Assembly: GCA_049515895.1 (NCBI GenBank)
Contig: JBEKTQ010000008.1
Coordinates: forward strand, 32,001-96,000
Length of the DNA stretch: 64,000 nucleotides
Origin: Candidatus Bathyarchaeia archaeon
GTDB lineage: Archaea > Thermoproteota > Bathyarchaeia > Bathyarchaeales > Bathycorpusculaceae
Direction: 5' to 3'
In this document: piece after piece, positions 36,050-44,794 of the stretch
Numbering within the stretch: position 1 is the stretch's first letter
Layout of the letters: the number at the start of each line of letters is the position of its first letter
Notes under the pieces: model-generated
What the model was told of the DNA's origin: nothing
Database searches by the model: none
The model's input: only the letters and a program-made list of their open reading frames with translations
Made by a program: the position numbers and the translations under genes

Positions 36050-36376
36050 ATGAGCGATTACATCATCATATTGGTTACTGCGAAAGACAGGGAGGAAGCT
36101 GATAAGATTTCGCAGTTGCTTGTGAAGGAACGTTTGATCGCTTGCGCGAACATTGTTAATCCAGTGTCTTCGTTTTTTCATTGGGTTGGGAATATTGAGA
36201 AGGCGGAGGAGTGCTTGATTGTTATGAAGTCGCGCAGGGATTTGTTTGCCGAGGTTGTAGGGCATGTTAAGCGTTTGCATAGTTATGAGGTTCCTGAGGT
36301 TTTGGCTGTTCCGATTGTTGATGGGTCGAAGGCGTATTTGGATTGGATGAGTGTTGTGCTTAAGCCCAAGCTATAA
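36050..36376 (+). CDS. cutA: Divalent-cation tolerance protein CutA
   Basis: LIACANI, S.F.W.G and HSYEVPE motifs. Confidence 0.93.
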   Translation: MSDYIIILVTAKDREEADKISQLLVKERLIACANIVNPVSSFFHWVGNIEKAEECLIVMKSRRDLFAEVVGHVKRLHSYEVPEVLAVPIVDGSKAYLDWMSVVLKPKL

Positions 36377-36451
36377 TGTACGTTTTTGTGCAGATAAGCC
36401 TTAAATAATACATTGAAGTATGTTTCTGAACCATAGGGAGCTCAAATCTAA

Positions 36452-36499
36452 ATGAGGAATTACATTTGGCGCAGCCGCCACACAAACCAAACCAGCTAA
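36452..36499 (+). promoter_or_regulatory. Trp-containing leader [18 protein letters not shown] overlapping the trpE frame
   Basis: ATG 36452 after GGGAG (36436-36440) and TATA-like TTAAATAA (36401-36408); single TGG at 36467; stop at 36497-36499. Confidence 0.65.
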
Positions 36500-37865
36500 C
36501 CCCCTAAAAATAAAGAAAATCACCCTAAAAGAGCAACCCCTCGAAATATTCTCAAGACTCCAAAAAAAATACCGAACAGCCTATCTTTTGGAGTCAATCG
36601 AAGGACCGAAAAAGCTTGCACAGTACTCATTCATCGGGTTCGACCCAAAAATAACCATAATAGCCAAAAACGGCAAAGCCAAAATCAAAAACGAAAAAAC
36701 AGGCGAAACAACCACTGAGAAAACAAGCGACCCACTCCAAACTTTAGAACGCCTCCTCAAAGAAGAAGCGGTTCCAAACACAGAATTCCGATTTGTAGGC
36801 GGAGCAGTCGGCTACATTTCTTATGACTCCGTCCGTTACTGGGAACGCCTGCCCCAGACCAGCGTGGATGACCTCTGCTTTCCCGACTTGGAAATGGGCA
36901 TATTTGACAACGGCTTTGTTTTCAATCATGTAGAGAAACAGGCCTTTTACTATTACCGTGGCGAGAATCGGCTGACTGAAGTTGAAGGACTACTCAGGCA
37001 ACAAATCGATCCGGAGCAGTTGTGGTACACGCAACCTAAAGTAAACATTAAAAAAGAAACGTATGAAGCCGCGGTGGAAAAAGCGAAGCAATACATAACG
37101 GCAGGCGATATTTTCCAAGTTGTCCCATCAAAAAGATACCAGTTCCAAATAAAGGGTAACCTAATCCCGTTCTACCAGACGTTAAGAACCATTAACCCTT
37201 CGCCATACATGTATTACTACACTTCAGGCGAACGCCAAATTGTTGGCGCTAGTCCAGAAATGCTTGTCCGCGTCGAGAAAAGAACCGTCGAAACCTTCCC
37301 GATTGCAGGCACCCGACCTGTCGTCGAGAACCCAGACGAGAATAGTAAGTTGGTCGCTGAGTTGCTTGCCGACCCCAAGGAACGCGCCGAACACGTCATG
37401 CTTGTCGATTTGGCACGCAACGACGTCGGAAGAATCAGCAAATATGGAAGCGTCCACGTACCCGAGTTCATGCAGGTCCACCAGTACAGTCACGTGCAAC
37501 ATATAGTCTCCCGAGTAGTGGGGCACCTCAAGGACGGCCTTCAAAGCTACGATGCCTTACGCGCTGTTTTTCCAGCGGGAACAGTTTCTGGAGCTCCAAA
37601 GGTGCGAGCAATGGAAATCATCGATGAACTTGAACCAGTGAGGCGTGGGCCATACGCTGGAGCCGTTGGCTACTTCTCCTACAACGGCAACGCAGATTTT
37701 GCCATAACAATCCGAACCCTCTTCGCACAAAAGAACCAAGCGTACATTCAAGCAGGCGGTGGAATCGTGGCTGACTCAGTGCCTGAGCAGGAGTGGTTTG
37801 AAACCGAGCACAAAGCAAGGGCGCTGATGCAGGCGCTGGAGCAGGCTGGAGGCACAGGACAATGA
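36456..37865 (+). CDS. trpE: Anthranilate synthase component I (frame open from 36456; first canonical start is an internal TTG at 36588)
   Basis: [42 protein letters not shown] and GTVSGAPK motifs. Confidence 0.95.
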
Positions 37866-38449
37866 AGGTGCTAGTAATTGACAATTACGATTCGTTTGTT
37901 TACAACCTTGTTCAGTACATCGGCGAACTAGGCGGTGAACCTGTGGTCTATAGAAACGACAAGGTAACCTTGGACCAGTTGAATGCGCTTAAATCTGACA
38001 GAATTGTGATTTCGCCAGGTCCAGGCATGCCTGAAGACGAGCGTTACTTTGGGGTCTGCACAAGAATCCTGCAAACCATGAGTCGAACAACGCCGACCTT
38101 GGGAGTGTGTCTTGGCCATCAGGGAATAATCCACGCTTACGGCGGAAAAATCATCCATGCCAAACGTCTCATGCACGGAAAAACCTGCACTATAAAGCAT
38201 GACCAAAAGGGGATCTTCGCAGATGTCCGCAACCCCTTCACTTCGATACGGTACCATTCGCTTGCTGGAGAACGCTACTCTTTGCCGTCGTGCCTGAAAA
38301 TTTCGGCAGAGTGCGTTGAAGACGGGGAAATAATGGGTGTCCGCCACGTCAAGTACCCGATTAACGGCGTCCAGTTCCACCCTGAATCAATCCTATGTGA
38401 GGACGGCAAGCTCATTATCAAGAACTTCTTGGAGGGCAATCAGCTATGA
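37862..38449 (+). CDS. trpG: Anthranilate synthase component II
   Basis: IDNYDSF, SPGPG, GVCLGHQ, RYHSL and QFHPES motifs. Confidence 0.96.
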   Translation: MKVLVIDNYDSFVYNLVQYIGELGGEPVVYRNDKVTLDQLNALKSDRIVISPGPGMPEDERYFGVCTRILQTMSRTTPTLGVCLGHQGIIHAYGGKIIHAKRLMHGKTCTIKHDQKGIFADVRNPFTSIRYHSLAGERYSLPSCLKISAECVEDGEIMGVRHVKYPINGVQFHPESILCEDGKLIIKNFLEGNQL

Positions 38450-39507
38450 TTCGGGAAGGCATTCAGAAACTCATCGAAGGCATCAGCTTAACCAGCGTCG
38501 AGTCAGGCGAAATCATGCGTGAAGTCATGTCGGGGCAGGCAACAAACTCACAAACCGCCGCGTTCTTGACCGCTCTACGGATAAAGGGTGAGGCAGTCGA
38601 AGAGCTTATCGCCTTTGCGTCAGTCATGCGTGAACAAAGCACTCAAATTCATCCCTGTGTGATGGGCCGCCTCGTGGATACCTGCGGGACGGGCGGAGAT
38701 AAAATAAAAACTTTCAACGTGAGCACGGCAGCTGCCTTCGTGATTGCTGGAGCAGGTGTTTCGGTTGCCAAGCATGGAAACAGGTCAGTGACCAGTAAAT
38801 GCGGAAGTGCCGATGTGCTGGAAAAACTTGGGTTAAACCTGTTTTCCGAGCCTAAAGTGGTCGAAGCCATGATTGAAAAGGTCGGGGTTGGCTTCATGTT
38901 TGCGCCAGCATTCCATCCAGCCATGAAGTACGCGGCTGAGACCAGACGGGAAATTGGCATCCGAACCGTATTCAACCTTCTCGGACCATTAACAAACCCC
39001 GCAAGCGCCAACGCTCAACTACTCGGTGTGTACGACCCCAAACTCACCGTTCCTCTGGCATACGCGTTGGGTCGGCTAGGATGCGAAGAAGCCATGGTTG
39101 TCCACGGGTTAGATGGTCTGGACGAGATTTCAACTGTTGGTAAGACGGCGGTTGCGTGGTTGAAGGATGGCAAAGTCACGGAACTGGAAACTTCTCCACG
39201 AGACTTTGGCGTAAAGCAGGCAAGCGTCGCCGATTTGAAGGTGTCCTCAGCTGAGGAAAGCGCGGACGCATTCTTCAGAATACTAAGCGGCAAAGTAGTA
39301 GCCGACGACTCGAAAATGGAGTTTGTGCTCGTTAACAGTGCGGCGGGAATTATCTTGGGCGGGAAAGCGGATGACTTCTTGGGCGGCATGGAGATAGCCC
39401 GCAAGTCAATAATGAGCGGCGCAGCCTACGACAGGCTAAAAAAGTTGATTGAGGCTTCGGGCGGAAACCCTTCTAAACTTGAGGAGTATGAAGCCAAGTA
39501 TGAGTGA
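38446..39507 (+). CDS. trpD: Anthranilate phosphoribosyltransferase
   Basis: DTCGTGGD, NVST, KHGNR and GLDE motifs. Confidence 0.96.
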   Translation: MIREGIQKLIEGISLTSVESGEIMREVMSGQATNSQTAAFLTALRIKGEAVEELIAFASVMREQSTQIHPCVMGRLVDTCGTGGDKIKTFNVSTAAAFVIAGAGVSVAKHGNRSVTSKCGSADVLEKLGLNLFSEPKVVEAMIEKVGVGFMFAPAFHPAMKYAAETRREIGIRTVFNLLGPLTNPASANAQLLGVYDPKLTVPLAYALGRLGCEEAMVVHGLDGLDEISTVGKTAVAWLKDGKVTELETSPRDFGVKQASVADLKVSSAEESADAFFRILSGKVVADDSKMEFVLVNSAAGIILGGKADDFLGGMEIARKSIMSGAAYDRLKKLIEASGGNPSKLEEYEAKYE

Positions 39508-40279
39508 CTACCTTGATGTATTGGCGCGTGTCGCCCAAGTAACCATTGATAGCGAATACTACGAGATGGCAAAATCCGCAGACACTATGCACCTGAGCCT
39601 GCGCAAAGCGATTTTGCAAAGCCAAAACGTGCCGGTTATAGCAGAAATCAAAGCTGCTTCCCCTTCAGCAGGGGTAATCAAGAAGGACCTTAATCCCGGC
39701 GAGGTTGCGCGAGCGATGCAGAGAGGCGGAGCGGTAGCTTTGTCAGTTTTAACTGAGCCGAAACATTTCGACGGTAGTTTGGAAGCTTTAGCCGCTGCAA
39801 GAGAAGCAGTGGAAATTCCGCTTCTAATGAAAGACATTGTTCTCAGCCCCGTGCAGGTTTATGCTGCAGGGAAAATGGGAGCCAACGCGGTCCTTCTGAT
39901 TAAGGCGCTTTTTGACCGTGGCTACTGCGAAAAAACCCTCGACGAAATGATTGATGGAGCCCACATCCTGGGGCTTGAGGTTCTGCTTGAAACCCACACT
40001 GAGGCAGAGTTTCAATCAGCTGTGAAGGCAAACGCGGATTTGATTGGAATAAATAACCGTGACCTTGCGACCTTTAAGGTAGATTTGAACGTGACAAAAA
40101 ACATTTTAGAGAAAAACGGTTCAAACGGCAAACCAGTGATAAGTGAAAGCGGAATAAAAACACCTGCCGACATACATTTCCTCCGTGAAAGCGGCGCCAG
40201 TGCTTTCCTAGTTGGATCAGCTATCATGTCAAGCAGCAACGTGGAAGGAAAAGTCAAGGAGTTTGTAGAGGCAAAATGA
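39500..40279 (+). CDS. trpC: Indole-3-glycerol-phosphate synthase
   Basis: IAEIK.ASPS, SVLTE, GINNRDL and SESG motifs. Confidence 0.95.
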
Positions 40280-41472
40280 AGTTAACCGAATATCCAGTAG
40301 ACGGAAAATACGGCAAGTACGGCGGACGCTTCGTTCCCGAAATCCTAATGGAAGCAATCAAGGAGCTTGAAGAAGCCTATGAAAAAGCGAAAAAAGACCC
40401 CGCCTTCCACAAACAGCTCGATTATTACCTGGCAGATTTCGCTGGGCGACCCACACCGCTGTACTACGCTGAAAACCTATCGAGGGAACTGGGCGGCGCC
40501 AAAATCTACTTAAAACGCGAAGACCTCGCCCACGGCGGCGCACACAAAATCAACAACACTTTGGGGCAGGCGCTGCTAGCTAAGCGAATGGGCAAGACGC
40601 GAGTAATCGCTGAGACAGGAGCAGGTCAGCATGGCGTGGCAACCGCCATTGCGTGCGCTGCCTTAGGGTTGCGGGCTGAAGTTTATATGGGCACAGAAGA
40701 CTGCGAGCGTCAGCGTCTGAACGTTTTCCGTATGAAGCTTCTTAACGCGCAGGTACATCCTGTGGAGACAGGCTCAAAAACGCTTAAAGACTCGATAAAC
40801 GAAGCCTTCCGCGATTGGGTAACCAACTTGGAAAGCACCTATTACCTGATCGGCTCCGTCGTCGGACCTCACCCGTACCCGATGATGGTTCGAGATTTCC
40901 AAAGCGTCATAGGCAAGGAACTCAAAGATCAATTCCAAAGAAAAGAAGGCGGCCTTCCAAACGCGCTGGTCGCATGCGTGGGCGGCGGAAGCAACGCAAT
41001 AGGCACGTTCTACCCGTTCGAAGACGACTTGGAAGTTGCGCTGTACGGGGTGGAAGCGGCAGGTGAAGGTTTGGAAACGGGCAAGCACGCGGCGTCTCTT
41101 GGCGCTGGAGCCGAAGGGGTCTTCCACGGCATGCTAACCTATGTTTTGCAGGACAGCAACGGGCAAATCCAGAACACAAGCAGCGTTTCAGCGGGCTTAG
41201 ATTACCCAGGCGTTGGACCCGAACTCTCCTTCCTCAAAACACTCAAAAGAGCACAGTACACTTCAGCCACTGACAAGGAAGCCGTGGAAGCTTTCCTGAC
41301 CCTATCCAGAGAAGAGGGAATCCTACCGGCTTTAGAGTCAGCGCACGCCGTAGCTTACGCAATGAAACTTGCCTCGAAAATGAAGAAGAACCAATCAATC
41401 GTAGTGACTCTTTCCGGACGCGGGGATAAGGATGTCGAAACAATCGCTGACTACATAGGTGCGAAAATATGA
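40276..41472 (+). CDS. trpB: Tryptophan synthase beta chain (TrpB1 type)
   Basis: [32 protein letters not shown] and LSGRGDKD motifs. Confidence 0.97.
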
Positions 41473-42287
41473 ACGCGATTGCAAAGGCATTCCAAAAAAC
41501 CAAAGAAGGGGGAAACGGCGCCCTAATCGGCTACGTCACCGCAGGAGACCCCACACCCGAGTTGACACCCAAAATCGCTGACGCCCTAATCCAAGGCGGA
41601 GTAGACATCTTGGAACTCGGGTTACCGTTTTCTGACCCTATAGCCGATGGACCCACAATTCAGGCGGCGAGCGTTCGAGCACTGGTTGCGGGAACAACGC
41701 CCCTAAAAGTGCTGCAGATTGCAAAAGAGATACGCAAAAGCCACGAGACGCCAATTGTAATAATGACCTACTACAATCCAGTCTTCAGAACTGGGTTGGA
41801 GAAATTTTGTCGTCTATCCAAGGAATTCATGGTGGACGGTGTCATTGTTCCCGACTTGCCGGTTGAAGAATCCGGCGACTACAAAAAGGCAGCGGCAAAG
41901 TTTGGGTTGGACACGATTTTCTTGGCCGCGCCGTCCACAACCCCTGAGCGGCTTAAGGCTATTGTTCAGTGTTCCTCGGGCTTTCTTTACCTTGTTTCTC
42001 ACTTTGGCGTGACGGGAGCCAAAACTGCAGTAGAAGATTCAACAATTCAACTCATCAAACGAGTTCTGCCAGTTACTTCAGGAAAGATCAATCTGGCAGT
42101 CGGCTTCGGAGTCTCAAAACCGCAACATGTAAAACGAATCGTTGCCGCAGGAGCTGACGGCGTAATCGTTGGAAGCGCCTTCATCGACCTAATCCAAAAA
42201 ACCCAGGACGACACTGTCGCCATGCTTAAGGAGTTGGAGGCAGTAGCCTCAGAAATGAAAAAAGCCACAAAAATATTGGAAAAGTAA
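41469..42287 (+). CDS. trpA: Tryptophan synthase alpha chain
   Basis: [24 protein letters not shown] and GVIVGSA motifs. Confidence 0.97.
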
Positions 42288-42295
42288 AGAGCCGC

Positions 42296-44794
42296 TTAAG
42301 TTTTCTGGCTGGCGACTAGGGGCTGATATTCCGCAACGAAGTGAACATTTGGGAACTGTGTCAACGCTCTACCCGCTCCTTCGGAAGGCAGAACCCTTAG
42401 GTTTTCCACTTTGCAGGCGCCGCAAATGTCCACTAACCCGTTTCTGATCGCTTCGGCTGCCGATTCTTCACCAGCGTAAACCTTTAGGATTTTGACGGGT
42501 GTGTTGAGGGGCATGCGTTTTTCTGCTTTTTCCCGTCGAACTTCGCCGATTAATCCCAGAACGATGTTGCCTTGCTTTTCCGCTTGCTCATCAACCATTG
42601 ACTGGTTGCATTGAGGCCAAGGAGAAACGTGGAGGCTACCAAAGCCCATTGCCTTGGCGTAAATGCATTGGTATATCTCTTCAGTCAAGTGGGGAACAAC
42701 AGGCGACAGAAGTTGCAGTACACGATACAAGACGTTGTAAAGGACGTGTTGAGCGGCGACTTTTTGGGCTTGCCCACCCAACTCGGGTCTGTAGAGCCTG
42801 TCTTTGACAGCTTCCAAGTAGGAATCGCAGAGCATATGCCAGGTGAAGTTGCGGATTTCTTCGACTGCAATGTTGAATTGGCATTTCTCGTAGGCTTCAG
42901 TTACTCTTTTAATGACGTTTTCAGCTTGGCTAATCATCCATCGATCCAGAAGCTGCAAATCCATTGGCGCCTCGTTGCTGGGTTGGTAATCGCTTAGGAG
43001 TTTACTTGCGAAGCCCGATGCATTCCACAGCTTAACCAAAAATCTTCTGCCATATTCGACGTCCTGCATTCGATAGGGAATGTCAGAGCCCGTTGCGCCT
43101 CCGGCTGCTGCCCACTGTCGAATAGCGTCAGCACCATACTTGTTGAGGGCTTCAGGTGCCGCCACGTAATTCTTGAGGGATTTGCTCATTTTTCTGCCAT
43201 CTTGGCCCAGCACCATCCCGTTGATGAGAACGCTTTTGAAAGGCGTTTCATCGAACAGCGCCAAATGCCTAACCATGAGATAGTAAGCCCAAGTTCGGAT
43301 GATGTCAGTACCTGAAGGATGCATGCTGGCGGGAAAAAGCCGGTGCCAATCCGCGCGGTCTGGCCAACCTGCGTGCACAGCGCAGGTTATCGAGGAATCC
43401 ATCCACGTATCGAAAACGTCAGGTTCGGGGGCGAATTCTTTTCCACCGCATTTGGGGCATCCGCTGATGCGCGGGACTTCAAGCTTGGGGTCGATAGGCA
43501 CCCATTGCTCATCAGCGAGGATCAGTTCTCCGCATTTTTTGCAGTACCAAACTGGGATCGGTGTTGCGAAAATCCGTTGGCGGCTGATGACCCAATCCCA
43601 ATCAAGCGATTTTGCCCAGTCGACAAGTCTGTTCTTCATGAAGTCAGGGTACCAATCAATCTCGTTCGCCGTTTTCTCAACTGCATCTGTCAGTTTGCGC
43701 GTTTCCATAAACCACTGCTTCCGCTCAAGGATCTCCACTTGGGCTTTGCAGCGATCGCAAACCCCGATCTCCTGACTGATTTTCTCGGTTTTCTCAATCA
43801 GGCCAGCGACCGTCAAGTCTTGGACAATGGCGGCCCGTGCTTGTTTTGTAGTTAAGCCCTGGTATTTGCCGCCGTTTTCGTTGATGCGGCCGTTCTCGGT
43901 CAGCAGTGTGATGACTGGAAGCTTGTTCTGGAGTACCGTTTTGACGTCTTCTTTGTCGCCGTAGGTGCAGATCATGACCACGCCGGTGCCGAACACTGGG
44001 TCCACACATTCATCGGAAATAACCGTTACGGGGCGATTTACAATGGGAACGGTAATCTTCTTGCCGACGTACTTGCAATATCGCTCATCTTTCGGGTTCA
44101 CTTCAATCGCCACGCAGGCGGGTATGAACTCGGGCCGTGAGGTGGCAATAGTCAGAAAATCCTGCGTTTTCGCAACTTGGAAGCGGATGTAGTGCAGAAC
44201 GCCGTCGCGTTTAATGTAGTCCACTTCGGCGTCGGCTATGGCTGTTTCGTCGTGGGGGCACCAGTTGACCGGATGTGTGCCCTGGTACATGAAGCCTTTC
44301 TTATGGAGAAGAATGAAACTGAGTTGGGTTCGGCGCCAGTAGTCTGGGTCCATGGTGCGGTACTCTGTGGTCCAGTCGATGCTGCAGCCCAACTTGAGGA
44401 TGCCGTCTTTCATCATGGCAATGTACTTCTCAACGAGTGCAATGCACATTTGTCGGAACTGATCGGTCGGCAATTCTCTTTTGCGTATGTTATGTGTTTT
44501 TTCAACTTGGATTTCTATTCCTAAACCGTGGCAATCCCAGCCCTGGGGAAAATGGACGTTGAACCCACGCATCCGCTTGTAGCGGGCGACCATGTCGAAG
44601 TAGGTCCAATTTAGAACGTTACCCATATGCAACTCACCCGAGGGGTAGGGCGGAGGAGTGTCTATGCTGAATGGAACACGCCGGGTGTCTTTCCAGTCGT
44701 AGCGGAAAATGCCTGTTTCGTCCCATTTCTGCTGCCATTTACGCTCTATCTCGAGGAAATTGTATTCTTTAGGCAAGGGTTGCATCGGTTTCAC
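42296..44794 (-). CDS. valS: Valine--tRNA ligase (archaeal type)
   Basis: DTPPPYPSGELHMGN, GWDCHG, DWVISRQR and KMSKS motifs. Confidence 0.95.
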   Translation of the reverse strand: MKPMQPLPKEYNFLEIERKWQQKWDETGIFRYDWKDTRRVPFSIDTPPPYPSGELHMGNVLNWTYFDMVARYKRMRGFNVHFPQGWDCHGLGIEIQVEKTHNIRKRELPTDQFRQMCIALVEKYIAMMKDGILKLGCSIDWTTEYRTMDPDYWRRTQLSFILLHKKGFMYQGTHPVNWCPHDETAIADAEVDYIKRDGVLHYIRFQVAKTQDFLTIATSRPEFIPACVAIEVNPKDERYCKYVGKKITVPIVNRPVTVISDECVDPVFGTGVVMICTYGDKEDVKTVLQNKLPVITLLTENGRINENGGKYQGLTTKQARAAIVQDLTVAGLIEKTEKISQEIGVCDRCKAQVEILERKQWFMETRKLTDAVEKTANEIDWYPDFMKNRLVDWAKSLDWDWVISRQRIFATPIPVWYCKKCGELILADEQWVPIDPKLEVPRISGCPKCGGKEFAPEPDVFDTWMDSSITCAVHAGWPDRADWHRLFPASMHPSGTDIIRTWAYYLMVRHLALFDETPFKSVLINGMVLGQDGRKMSKSLKNYVAAPEALNKYGADAIRQWAAAGGATGSDIPYRMQDVEYGRRFLVKLWNASGFASKLLSDYQPSNEAPMDLQLLDRWMISQAENVIKRVTEAYEKCQFNIAVEEIRNFTWHMLCDSYLEAVKDRLYRPELGGQAQKVAAQHVLYNVLYRVLQLLSPVVPHLTEEIYQCIYAKAMGFGSLHVSPWPQCNQSMVDEQAEKQGNIVLGLIGEVRREKAEKRMPLNTPVKILKVYAGEESAAEAIRNGLVDICGACKVENLRVLPSEGAGRALTQFPNVHFVAEYQPLVASQKT

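Follow-up and report, generated by a model that had tools for sequence, protein, structure and literature searches.

A putative programmed +1 ribosomal frameshift at a tryptophan codon ahead of trpE in Bathyarchaeia and related archaea

The tryptophan operon in the window analysed here (64,000 nucleotides of a Candidatus Bathyarchaeia archaeon contig) raises the question of how ribosomes enter its first gene, trpE. The preliminary description of this DNA held that the trpE frame is closed upstream by a TGA and contains no ATG, GTG or TTG before a TTG within the conserved LLES motif. Both points hold: the stop lies at 36453-36455, the frame is open from 36456, and its first canonical start is TTG 36588. 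Initiation there would, as had also been said, remove the N-terminal part of the protein. The Pfam match to Anth_synt_I_N covers profile positions 3-139 of 140 and begins at residue 26 of the trpE-frame reading, so that about 20 positions of the domain would be lost if translation began at residue 45. Both TrpE domains are matched in this frame (Anth_synt_I_N, E-value 7.6e-37; Chorismate_bind, 4.4e-98).

What initiation signals there are lead into another frame. An ATG at 36452, preceded by a Shine-Dalgarno (SD) sequence complementary to the genome's own 16S 3' end (...GGATCACCTCCT), opens a 15-codon leader that ends at TAA 36497-36499, and within it the heptamer ATT-TGG-C at 36464-36470 has trpE as its +1 frame; here too the sequence agrees with what had been described. 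The two frames differ by a single base, and if ATTT is read as a single step, the product begins MRNYI-GAAATQ.... Another TTG, at 36466, begins a third-frame ORF that runs for 13 codons. The elements of this region are as follows.

36436..36440, + strand: Shine-Dalgarno GGGAG of the leader ORF, 11 bases before ATG 36452, read from the sequence
36452..36499, + strand: leader ORF of 15 codons with stop TAA 36497, giving the zero-frame product if the ribosome does not shift
36454..36461, + strand: internal SD-like element GAGGAATT (consensus RGGNAT), ending 3 bases before the slip codon, a putative +1 stimulator
36464..36470, + strand: putative shift site ATT-TGG-C, with TTTGG invariant in aligned cassettes
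36468..37865, + strand: trpE, anthranilate synthase component I (Pfam), from GGC, the first post-shift codon, to the stop; N-terminus predicted

An assembly error would be the simplest way to break a frame, and the preliminary description had named an indel, such as a sixth C at 36500-36504, as an outcome that would overturn its proposal. Contigs from three runs of three studies cover 36342-36551 or more without a gap and differ from the window by 0, 1 and 0 letters, so that no such indel is present.

We compared 158 genomes, 128 from the same class and 30 from other classes of the phylum. Since they were hand-picked from hit lists and are mutually related, the counts given here are not independent events. 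The unit of comparison, hereafter the cassette, consists of a start codon (ATG, GTG or TTG), mostly four further codons (within the class always four, but for one genome with six) and NTT-TGG-N, with the +1 frame running into trpE. The test named at the outset asked whether (Y/A)TTTGG is conserved, whether a start in the leader frame precedes it and whether in-frame starts are lacking; the outcome went beyond that expectation, the cassette being present in 142 of the 158 genomes. Within the class it was found in 122 of 128, with an intact +1 relation to trpE in 121 genomes from 15 families; one genome (G388) carries the cassette plus a later frame break. Another 20 cassettes come from the 30 genomes of other classes, and the tool-assigned names of the metagenome-assembled genomes that have it include Bathyarchaeia, Ca. 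Wolframiiraptor and Nitrosopumilaceae. The recurrence of the cassette is far above chance. Five loci missed by the LLES pattern (L036, L099, L109, L123 and L125) all proved to have it when checked by eye. As the search patterns required NTT-T and TTTGG, other A-site codons would go uncounted; reading the 15 resolved cassette-free loci by eye gave none with a variant A-site codon, L059 (contig end) and L232 (no clear reading) being left out.

The conserved island is sharp and spans 18 bases. In 120 aligned cassettes, TTTGG reaches 2.0 bits per position and the flanks fall to 0-0.6 bits. Codon usage at the site was counted in a script-scored subset of 118 genomes: leaders begin with ATG (111), GTG (5) or TTG (2); the codon in the P site is CTT (64), GTT (36), ATT (14) or TTT (4); and the +1 codon is GGC (87), GGA (14), GGG (9) or GGT (8). 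Neither TTC in place of TTT nor NTC as the P-site codon was ever seen among the cassettes found with patterns that required NTT-T; TTC makes up 56% of the Phe codons in this genome. Leaders have one Trp codon, as in the window, except for a single locus (L221) with two, and in other lineages 3, 6 or 7 codons can precede the TGG. The leader ends anywhere from 1 to 28 codons after TGG, and its tail is not conserved. Most related loci have GGAG, GGAAG, GGTG or GGAGG 9-11 bases before the leader start. Within the genome of the window, a relaxed version of the 18-base pattern has 4 matches where 4.6 are expected, and a long +1 frame follows only the one at trpE. A broader scan (start codon, 1-10 codons, NTT-T and a long +1 frame) yielded 91 candidates, among which a cursory inspection left only trpE convincing. 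One of the candidates for a second cassette, C7, looked TrpE-like but proved unrelated, its start being an ordinary internal ATG.

Where the frame changes can be narrowed down from the distribution of stops. From TTT on, the trpE frame is stop-free in 121 of the 122 cassette genomes over a spacer to LLES that varies from 34 to 50 codons; of the other two frames, one is closed within 15 codons in 95 and the other in 91 of 121 genomes. Upstream, a trpE-frame stop lies within 5 codons before TTT in 52 of 121 genomes of the class and, among all of the genomes compared, directly before it in ten (G087, G142, G072, G629, G745, G685, G647, G720, G675 and G558). On the leader side, the stop comes one codon after TGG in 7 genomes. 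One further genome, G006, has an in-frame fusion with the junction exactly after the NTT codon and no TGG (MRNHL-DNQ...), which is the pattern expected of a shift-free derivative. The ten upstream stops, the seven early leader stops and this junction together confine the shift window to NTT-T. These comparisons strongly support a +1 frame change that is required and is located at NTT-T. Initiation at ATT 36459 or at an ATA, another outcome that the preliminary description had named as refuting, is excluded as a general solution by the ten stops directly before TTT.

Codons 2-3 of the leader carry the SD-like element, whose positions hold 1.7-1.9 bits. For the 44 unique segments from the start codon to codon 4, the predicted pairing with the 16S 3' tail has a median energy of -8.1 kcal/mol, compared with -2.6 kcal/mol for random 12-mers of the genome, of which 2.2-2.6% reach -8.1 kcal/mol. 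In some lineages the element reads GGTGATC, a perfect complement of the 16S sequence (-13.8); the window's own segment pairs modestly, at only -5.6 kcal/mol. Base-pairing of this element with the 16S 3' end probably favors the slip. Read in the trpE frame, the same bases give G-[I/V/M]-x-F, a pattern that looks selected, with the Gly codon using all four third bases and Ile using ATC, ATT and ATA. We tentatively attribute it to the SD-like element. Genes for tRNAs with the anticodons GAG, GAU, GAC and GAA are present in the genome, together with three Gly isoacceptors. ARAGORN found no tRNA-Trp gene, with or without its intron option, and we draw no conclusion from this. The same program reported one odd tRNA-like match with a four-base anticodon (ataa), which does not fit the shift site.

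We consider it likely that trpE is expressed through a programmed +1 ribosomal frameshift acting as a translational sensor of charged tRNA-Trp. The slippage mechanism itself, its stimulation by the SD-like element, its dependence on Trp-tRNA and the gating of the whole operon are what we infer from the arrangement just described. Ribosomes would start at ATG 36452 and read four more codons, at which point the P site would hold peptidyl-tRNA paired with ATT (in relatives NTT) and the A site the sole Trp codon, TGG. With Trp-tRNA plentiful, TGG would be read, the 15-residue leader would end at TAA 36497 and no TrpE would be made. With Trp-tRNA scarce, the A site would stay empty and the P-site tRNA (tRNA-Ile with anticodon GAU here; anticodon GAG, GAC or GAA elsewhere) would re-pair one base on, onto UUU, probably aided by the SD-like element three bases before the slip codon; a Gly-tRNA would then read GGC and translation would enter TrpE. 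We count in favor of Trp sensing that the A-site codon is the only Trp codon of the leader and that it heads a Trp operon; that leaders contain just one such codon (two in L221) also weighs against it.

That operon continues without a gap, and Pfam matches after trpE (GATase, Glycos_transf_3, IGPS, PALP and Trp_syntA) identify a trp gene cluster.

37862-38449, + strand: trpG, start overlapping the trpE stop
38446-39507, + strand: trpD, start overlapping the trpG stop
39500-40279, + strand: trpC, start overlapping the trpD stop
40276-41472, + strand: trpB, start overlapping the trpC stop
41469-42287, + strand: trpA, start overlapping the trpB stop

The start-to-stop overlaps noted previously are thus real, with 4 bases each for trpE/G, G/D, C/B and B/A and, if trpC starts at ATG 39500, 8 bases for trpD/C. 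Through such overlaps, translation of trpG to trpA may depend on that of trpE by translational coupling, and since all of the downstream trp genes overlap in this way, little of the operon would probably be translated without the shift. With somewhat less confidence, we think it probable that the cassettes of the Bathyarchaeia, the Wolframiiraptor-type loci and the Nitrosopumilaceae-type loci represent one ancient, phylum-wide "frameshift attenuation," in which ribosomes five codons past the start would have to slip by +1 at a starved Trp codon, with help from the internal SD-like element, to turn on TrpE and, via coupling, the operon.

Control at other levels was looked for around the leader. 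As the preliminary description had stated, there is no attenuator hairpin with a U-run: the stretch 36300-36700 has 0 terminator-like sites, and no mutually exclusive terminator and antiterminator hairpins with a U-run, as in trpL-type attenuators, were found. Covariance models, T-box and riboswitches included, gave no Rfam match at an E-value of ≤1 on either strand of 36200-36800. No unusual folding was found near the leader (z = -0.69), and the sequence downstream of the site is A/C-rich and variable. The same description had seen no transcriptional control, and in this respect it is to be qualified: candidate operator boxes flank the promoter.

36377..36392, + strand: two TGTAC-like boxes (TGTAC ... 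TGTGCA) between the CutA stop codon and the promoter, a candidate Trp-repressor operator

In 104 of 117 loci, TGTAC or GTACA occurs in the 130 bases ahead of the leader, and 77 have two separate boxes; a repressor may therefore also act. The boxes resemble TGTACA, the TRP box bound by TrpY. Our literature search brought up no relevant paper giving TGTACA together with TrpY. TrpY does bind "TRP box" sequences, according to PMC6737238. What stands of the earlier statement is that no TrpY gene is visible nearby: the scan of neighboring ORFs found no regulator gene within about 2.5 kb on either side of the operon.

The most serious challenge to a Trp sensor accepts the shift. A +1 shift required at NTT-TGG could be constitutive, or could respond to something other than Trp-tRNA, setting a fixed low TrpE level or reporting the general state of translation, with Trp control then only transcriptional, for example through the TGTAC boxes. 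Everything that the genome comparison offers for a shift is equally compatible with this reading, most loci have the boxes around the promoter, and UGG could be fixed simply because U serves re-pairing on UUU and GGN serves fast decoding in the +1 frame. If any slow codon sufficed, the A site should sometimes contain a stop or a U-starting codon other than TGG; TGG is found in 142 of 142 cassettes, albeit with patterns that required TTTGG, and the resolved cassette-free loci read by eye offered no A-site variant (L232 allowing no clear reading). The cassette moreover heads the Trp operon and, by the two scans described above, occurs nowhere else in this genome, and a constitutive shift would be a cost without obvious benefit, yet it has been retained across several classes. 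We regard this reading as unlikely, while giving it some weight. Less credible still, and in our view improbable, is that the leader is an independent regulatory uORF and that TrpE starts by itself, perhaps by re-initiation, at ATT 36459, ATA 36510, ATC 36519 or a variable canonical codon. Such near-cognate codons do exist in the trpE frame of the window. Among the 118 scored genomes, ATG or GTG is the trpE-frame codon just before TTT in 20, and canonical starts at unconserved positions between TTT and LLES are present in 44. In loci of the Nitrosopumilaceae type, ATGGGTGG contains an in-frame GTG. Some shift-independent initiation may occur in genomes of these kinds. As a general account it meets 46 of the 118 genomes in which a canonical start is wholly absent between the upstream stop and LLES, the ten in which a stop directly before TTT bars any start upstream of TTT, and a spacer in which no canonical or near-cognate start is conserved at any position (0.1-0.6 bits). 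Nor would a self-starting TrpE need a frame relation kept over spacers of 34-50 codons, or a frame opening exactly at TTT in 121 of 122 genomes, and leader stops at 1 to 28 codons after TGG fit no fixed re-initiation site.

Two further readings would move or abolish the slip. Were the frame to change directly after the start codon (AUG, a skipped purine, then GGN ATH ...), the protein would begin M-G-I-x-F-G and TTTGG would be kept only as Phe-Gly. The synonymous variation of GGN and ATH in the trpE frame and the skipped base, which is always a purine, agree with this, and the reading looked serious from the first 90 loci, in which G-[I/V/M]-x-F-G seemed selected; it was rejected on the stops directly before TTT, which in ten genomes lie between the start codon and TTT. 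It also leaves TTT never replaced by TTC despite the usage of TTC in this genome, the in-frame derivative G006 keeping leader-frame residues and not G-I-x-F, and leaders with 3, 6 or 7 codons before TGG, and we give it almost no credence. An artefact, a pseudogene or a non-ribosomal correction (assembly indel, decaying trpE, transcriptional slippage, RNA editing or a four-base-reading tRNA) is very improbable. Nothing specific speaks for it, the four-base anticodon reported by ARAGORN being unsuited to the site. Against it, the window is in agreement with three independent assemblies, 142 genomes share the architecture, some of them assembled as a single contig, and the remainder of trpE is intact and conserved. 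In most loci the T run at this site has only three bases, too short for known cases of transcriptional slippage; a four-base-reading tRNA would act at every such codon genome-wide.

The Trp-responsive frameshift has its closest parallel in bacterial prfB, the gene of release factor 2, which is autoregulated by a +1 frameshift at CTT-TGA-C with an SD-like element three bases before the slip codon. The commonest trpE cassette, CTT-TGG-C, is one base from that site. In both, a P-site NUU followed by U allows +1 re-pairing (ATT-T in the window), an SD-like element, for trpE a putative stimulator, lies three bases upstream of the slip codon (with a pairing of only -5.6 kcal/mol in the window), the zero frame ends soon after the site so that a full-length product needs the shift, and the decoding speed of the A-site codon would report the regulated quantity. 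Unlike the UGA stop of prfB, the A-site codon of trpE is the sense codon TGG, which would sense charged tRNA-Trp in place of a release factor. Further differences are that trpE encodes a biosynthetic enzyme and heads an operon, that the site is at codons 5-6, right after initiation, and that the organisms are archaea. Because of the TGG in the A site and TrpE as the product, the cassette would work like prfB but stand outside that family. Yeast Ty1 and ABP140-type genes shift +1 at CUU-AGG-C, where a tRNA that is always rare makes the codon hungry and the two products are made in a fixed ratio. There, as proposed here, the peptidyl-tRNA slips from a wobble-paired CUU at a "hungry" A-site sense codon, and downstream RNA structure is not needed; none is seen at trpE. 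In contrast to those genes, trpE without the shift gives no full-length product, and since its sole Trp codon precedes Trp-synthesis genes, the site suggests a regulated response. With bacterial trpL attenuation the cassette shares a short Trp-codon leader ORF before trpE (15 codons with one TGG here), in which ribosome speed is the proposed sensor. It differs in lacking alternative hairpins and a U-run terminator, in having one Trp codon instead of two, and in its output, a change of reading frame and not continued transcription.

Frameshifting at "hungry codons" is itself described from laboratory constructs in E. coli, in which an empty A site lets the P-site tRNA slip (PMC5009743 and PMC8211752). 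These texts treat it as an error or an experimental effect; the trpE case would be built into a gene and conserved. One of the two, a 2016 review, states that no natural example of a starvation-specific trans-frame protein is known. The archaeal precedent for Trp control of a trp operon is TrpY of Methanothermobacter, and palindrome-like boxes beside the promoter are a feature of the loci studied here as well. According to PMC6737238, TrpY acts on transcription through a protein, unlike the trpE cassette, and Crenarchaeota mostly lack TrpY and Tar homologues, so that a third mechanism may serve there. In the freely accessible literature searched, we found no description of a frameshift in trpE or at a Trp codon.

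Should the proposed mechanism be true, it would be a first in nature on two counts, as a frameshift that senses an amino acid and as a use of hungry-codon frameshifting, and in archaea it would be the first programmed +1 frameshift with wide conservation; it would also settle the question, raised in the frameshifting field, of whether a starvation-induced shift naturally makes a useful protein. How amino-acid synthesis is regulated in most archaea is largely unknown, and the cassette is a concrete, testable candidate. It also has practical sides. As canonical starts alone cannot give a full-length trpE, gene finders are likely to shorten the gene or to mark it as broken, and such misannotation may lead to faulty reconstructions of the metabolism of uncultured archaea. 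As a compact Trp-responsive translational switch, the 18-base cassette could, in addition, be useful in archaeal genetics.

The transcript that would carry the leader has a recognizable promoter.

36392..36408, + strand: archaeal promoter, with a purine-rich BRE-like AGATAAGCC followed by the TATA box TTAAATAA (36401-36408), identified by conservation
36411..36431, + strand: conserved element CATTGnnGTATGyTTCTGAAC, downstream of the TATA box and ahead of the inferred transcript start (by-eye alignment of 26 loci)

CutA lies directly upstream of the trp locus, and the six neighboring ORFs scanned comprise TrmO, GDPD, DUF5752, a class I tRNA synthetase and two without a family. RATAAGCC-TTAAATAA is nearly invariant within the genus, and the median distance from the beginning of the TATA box to the leader start codon is 50 bases in 108 loci; the usual archaeal spacing would place the transcript start near 36430. 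In Nitrosopumilaceae-type and Wolframiiraptor-type loci, the position of the TATA box suggests that the transcripts may be leaderless. The element CATTGnnGTATGyTTCTGAAC is conserved at the level of the genus only, with 0-0.4 bits across the class.

The 5' end of a trp operon lies at 36401-36600; Pfam profile matches give the gene order trpE, G, D, C, B, A, and each downstream start overlaps the preceding stop. Re-reading of the sequence agreed with the preliminary description of the first gene: its frame is closed by a TGA and lacks a canonical start before a TTG in the conserved LLES motif of the TrpE N-terminal domain, and an ATG preceded by a Shine-Dalgarno (SD) sequence opens a 15-codon leader in another frame.

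36376: end of the CutA gene, upstream of the trp operon
36377-36392: pair of TGTAC(A)-like boxes with a gap of 5-6 bases, immediately upstream of the trpE BRE/TATA
36436-36440: SD sequence GGGAG, preceding the leader ATG
36452: leader start ATG, one base upstream of the TGA closing the trpE frame
36453-36455: TGA closing the trpE frame, which reads open from 36456 on to LLES
36497: leader stop TAA
36588: TTG, the first ATG/GTG/TTG of the trpE frame, inside LLES

This TTG lies about 20 positions inside the Anth_synt_I_N domain (Pfam). Leader codons 5 and 6 are ATT TGG, with C as the next base, and the +1 frame from there is trpE; conceptual translation gives the TrpE product reading when ATTT is taken as one step. 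An assembly indel is excluded because contigs from three metagenome runs, belonging to three studies, span this position gap-free and differ from it in 0, 1 and 0 letters.

Whole-genome searches with the TrpE reading as the query found trpE in 28 of 41 relatives, 214 of 401 genomes of the order and 152 of 301 of the class; the close relatives are Candidatus Bathyarchaeia MAGs. For the class, 130 loci of 128 genomes were read at their 5' regions: 30 came from the relatives search and 100 were picked by hand across genera and families. This sample is neither random nor complete, and the genomes are kin. In 121 of these 128 genomes, from 15 families, a cassette stands in +1 relation to trpE: a start codon is followed by four codons (in a single genome by six), then by NTT, TGG and N. 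One more genome (G388, locus L089) carries the cassette and a further break of the trpE frame about 25 codons downstream with an in-frame TAA, which reflects an assembly indel or else decay of the gene. In G006 the cassette gene is in-frame, a contig edge cuts off the locus of G404, and four genomes (G434 of family f30; G449, G511 and G521 of f24) have ordinary in-frame starts without a leader.

Detailed tallies refer to the 118 genomes scored by script; three more, added by eye, all have an ATG start and a GTT P-site codon. The leader begins with ATG (111), GTG (5) or TTG (2), as is to be expected for a real start. The presumed P-site codon is CTT (64), GTT (36), ATT (14) or TTT (4), and the codon that would be read after the shift is GGC (87), GGA (14), GGG (9) or GGT (8). 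Between the upstream stop and LLES, 46 of the 118 lack any canonical trpE-frame start. Conservation at the class level forms an 18-base island (120 sequences, all different), with 2.0 bits per position in TTTGG, 1.7-1.9 bits in the GG and AT of codons 2-3, and almost no information in the flanks except the SD sequence. The same peat and wetland metagenomes (runs X2 and X4) also yielded contigs from other strains, with the commoner cassette form (…ATGGGGAATCGCCTTTGG…), and several variants therefore coexist in one habitat. Open trpE frames of 657-668 residues in G022, G223, G238, G305, G213, G540 and G720 suggest that trpE and trpG are fused in some relatives.

The place of the frame change is delimited by three independent lines of evidence: stops, open frames and a shift-free derivative. 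A trpE-frame stop directly precedes TTT in ten genomes (G087, G142, G072, G629, G745, G685, G647, G720, G675 and G558), in about half of the remaining ones the TGA overlapping the start codon sits three codons further up, and in seven the leader frame ends a single codon past TGG; the change is thus confined to NTT-TGG-NNN. In 121 of the 122 cassette genomes the trpE frame stays open from TTT on, which is the fair figure since a zero stop count is partly built in by the filter. The stretch from TTT to LLES, of twelve different lengths (34-50 codons), is hardly conserved. Stops close the other two frames within 15 codons in 95 and in 91 genomes out of 121, and the trpE frame itself has a stop within the five codons before TTT in 52 of the 121. 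Shift-free relatives of frameshifted genes usually look like the in-frame gene of G006, which keeps the leader-frame residues MRNHL and passes directly into this spacer, one T and the TGG being missing. Together, these observations rule out both a TrpE start at ATT 36459 or further upstream and a shift right after the AUG, considered as a rival in the interim. Comparison shows that the predicted full-length TrpE can be read only if the frame changes by +1 at NTT-T.

TTC was never seen in place of TTT, nor NTC as the P-site codon, and TTC makes up 56% of the Phe codons in the window's own genome. Such constancy would be expected if the P-site tRNA must re-pair on UUU and the A-site codon must be UGG; protein coding by itself would not predict it. 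The bases RGG NAT that separate the start from the slip codon resemble a conserved Gly-Ile in the trpE frame, yet they seem better explained as an SD-like element. Segments from the start to codon 4 pair with the 16S rRNA tail (3' end in the own genome, ...GGATCACCTCCT) at a median of -8.1 kcal/mol, compared with -2.6 for random 12-mers, only 2.2-2.6% of which reach -8.1 kcal/mol. A perfect GGTGATC (-13.8) occurs in some lineages, the same ones that have a trpE-frame stop there. The gap between the element and the slip codon is three bases, as for the prfB stimulator; the window's own copy, a putative stimulator, is weaker (-5.6).

When the search was widened to the phylum, 136 of 251 genomes gave a trpE match. 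Among 30 loci of other classes, picked by hand, 20 carry the cassette (15 by script, 5 by eye), with 3 to 6 codons before TGG; nine have ordinary in-frame starts (six in family f41, one in f48, two in f51) and one is ambiguous. The cassette is present in a Ca. Wolframiiraptor allenii MAG (L136) and a Nitrosopumilaceae archaeon MAG (L163), and in a Nitrosopumilus MAG (L146) the start is an ordinary ATG. In loci of the Wolframiiraptor and Nitrosopumilaceae types, about 30 bases separate the beginning of the TATA box from the leader ATG; their mRNA may therefore be leaderless, beginning at that ATG. The distribution of the cassette in archaea is very wide, and it is ancient. The +1 frameshift originally proposed for trpE is supported as far as sequence comparison reaches (121/128 genomes of the class, 20/30 of other classes). 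A lineage with a different leader comprises L221 (G580), L222 and L240; in L221 the leader MPRLWGMCLWQ has two Trp codons, the second at a CTT-TGG slip site, and a short alternative start, ATG TGC CTT TGG, is also present.

In the mechanism that we propose, the peptidyl-tRNA would slip onto UUU while UGG stays unread in the A site, and GGN would then be decoded by Gly-tRNA. All four P-site codons would be read by G34 tRNAs via G-U wobble; genes for tRNAs with anticodons GAG, GAU, GAC and GAA are present in the own genome (ARAGORN). Slippage would increase when charged tRNA-Trp is scarce, such that shortage would yield TrpE and plentiful Trp the short leader. Since every later gene begins in overlap with the stop before it, translation of the entire operon may be under the control of this switch. 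Trp sensing is argued chiefly from two points: the A-site codon, which is invariant, is the sole Trp codon, and pattern scans of the own genome place the cassette nowhere but in front of trpE. What weakens the argument most is that mechanical constraints alone might have fixed U-GG; a constitutive frameshift is therefore kept as the chief rival. We consider it highly probable that TrpE synthesis depends on a programmed +1 shift at NTT-TGG, and likely, with somewhat less confidence, that this required shift also responds to Trp.

In its mode of action the cassette would correspond to the frameshift of prfB, the stop of which is replaced here by a Trp codon, and it is similar to the CUU-AGG-C sites of yeast, where the hungry codon is likewise a sense codon. 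It is a member of neither family, because the A-site codon and the product differ. With bacterial trpL it would share the reading out of ribosome speed at a Trp codon, whereas the terminator and antiterminator structures of trpL are absent: a terminator scan and folding found no such hairpins in the trpE 5' region, where no Rfam family matched either. In kind, the cassette would be autoregulatory +1 frameshifting with a new sensor and a new biological role. The accessible text of a 2016 review of frameshifting (PMC5009743) considers that hungry-codon shifting could yield starvation-specific trans-frame proteins, of which "no examples are known", and that of a 2021 review of archaeal recoding (PMC8211752) mentions neither tryptophan nor anthranilate. 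A full-text search, with subscription journals mostly outside it, found no description of a frameshift in trpE or of a Trp-sensing frameshift.

The paired boxes at 36377-36392 may be the operator of a Trp repressor. We take TGTACA to be the TRP-box consensus, although the literature search found no paper giving it as such. A transcriptional layer, compatible with the frameshift and not exclusive of it, is possible, because TGTAC/GTACA boxes flank the trpE promoter in 104 of 117 loci and TrpY of Methanothermobacter binds "TRP boxes" (PMC6737238). A scan of roughly 2.5 kb to each side of the operon found no regulator gene. Another element, CATTGnnGTATGyTTCTGAAC (36411-36431), separates the TATA box from the inferred transcript start; it is near-invariant within the genus and not beyond.

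ARAGORN, intron option included, detected no tRNA-Trp, tRNA-Tyr or tRNA-Asp in the own genome, which may be due to unusual introns or split tRNA genes; one tRNA-like match has a four-base anticodon (ataa). The operon (37862-42287) contains no trpF and its IGPS gene is single-domain (Pfam); trpF must lie elsewhere in the genome or have been replaced. Converging on the operon end, on the minus strand at 42296-44794, is a gene for an 832-residue class I aminoacyl-tRNA synthetase of the Ile/Leu/Val/Met type (Pfam).
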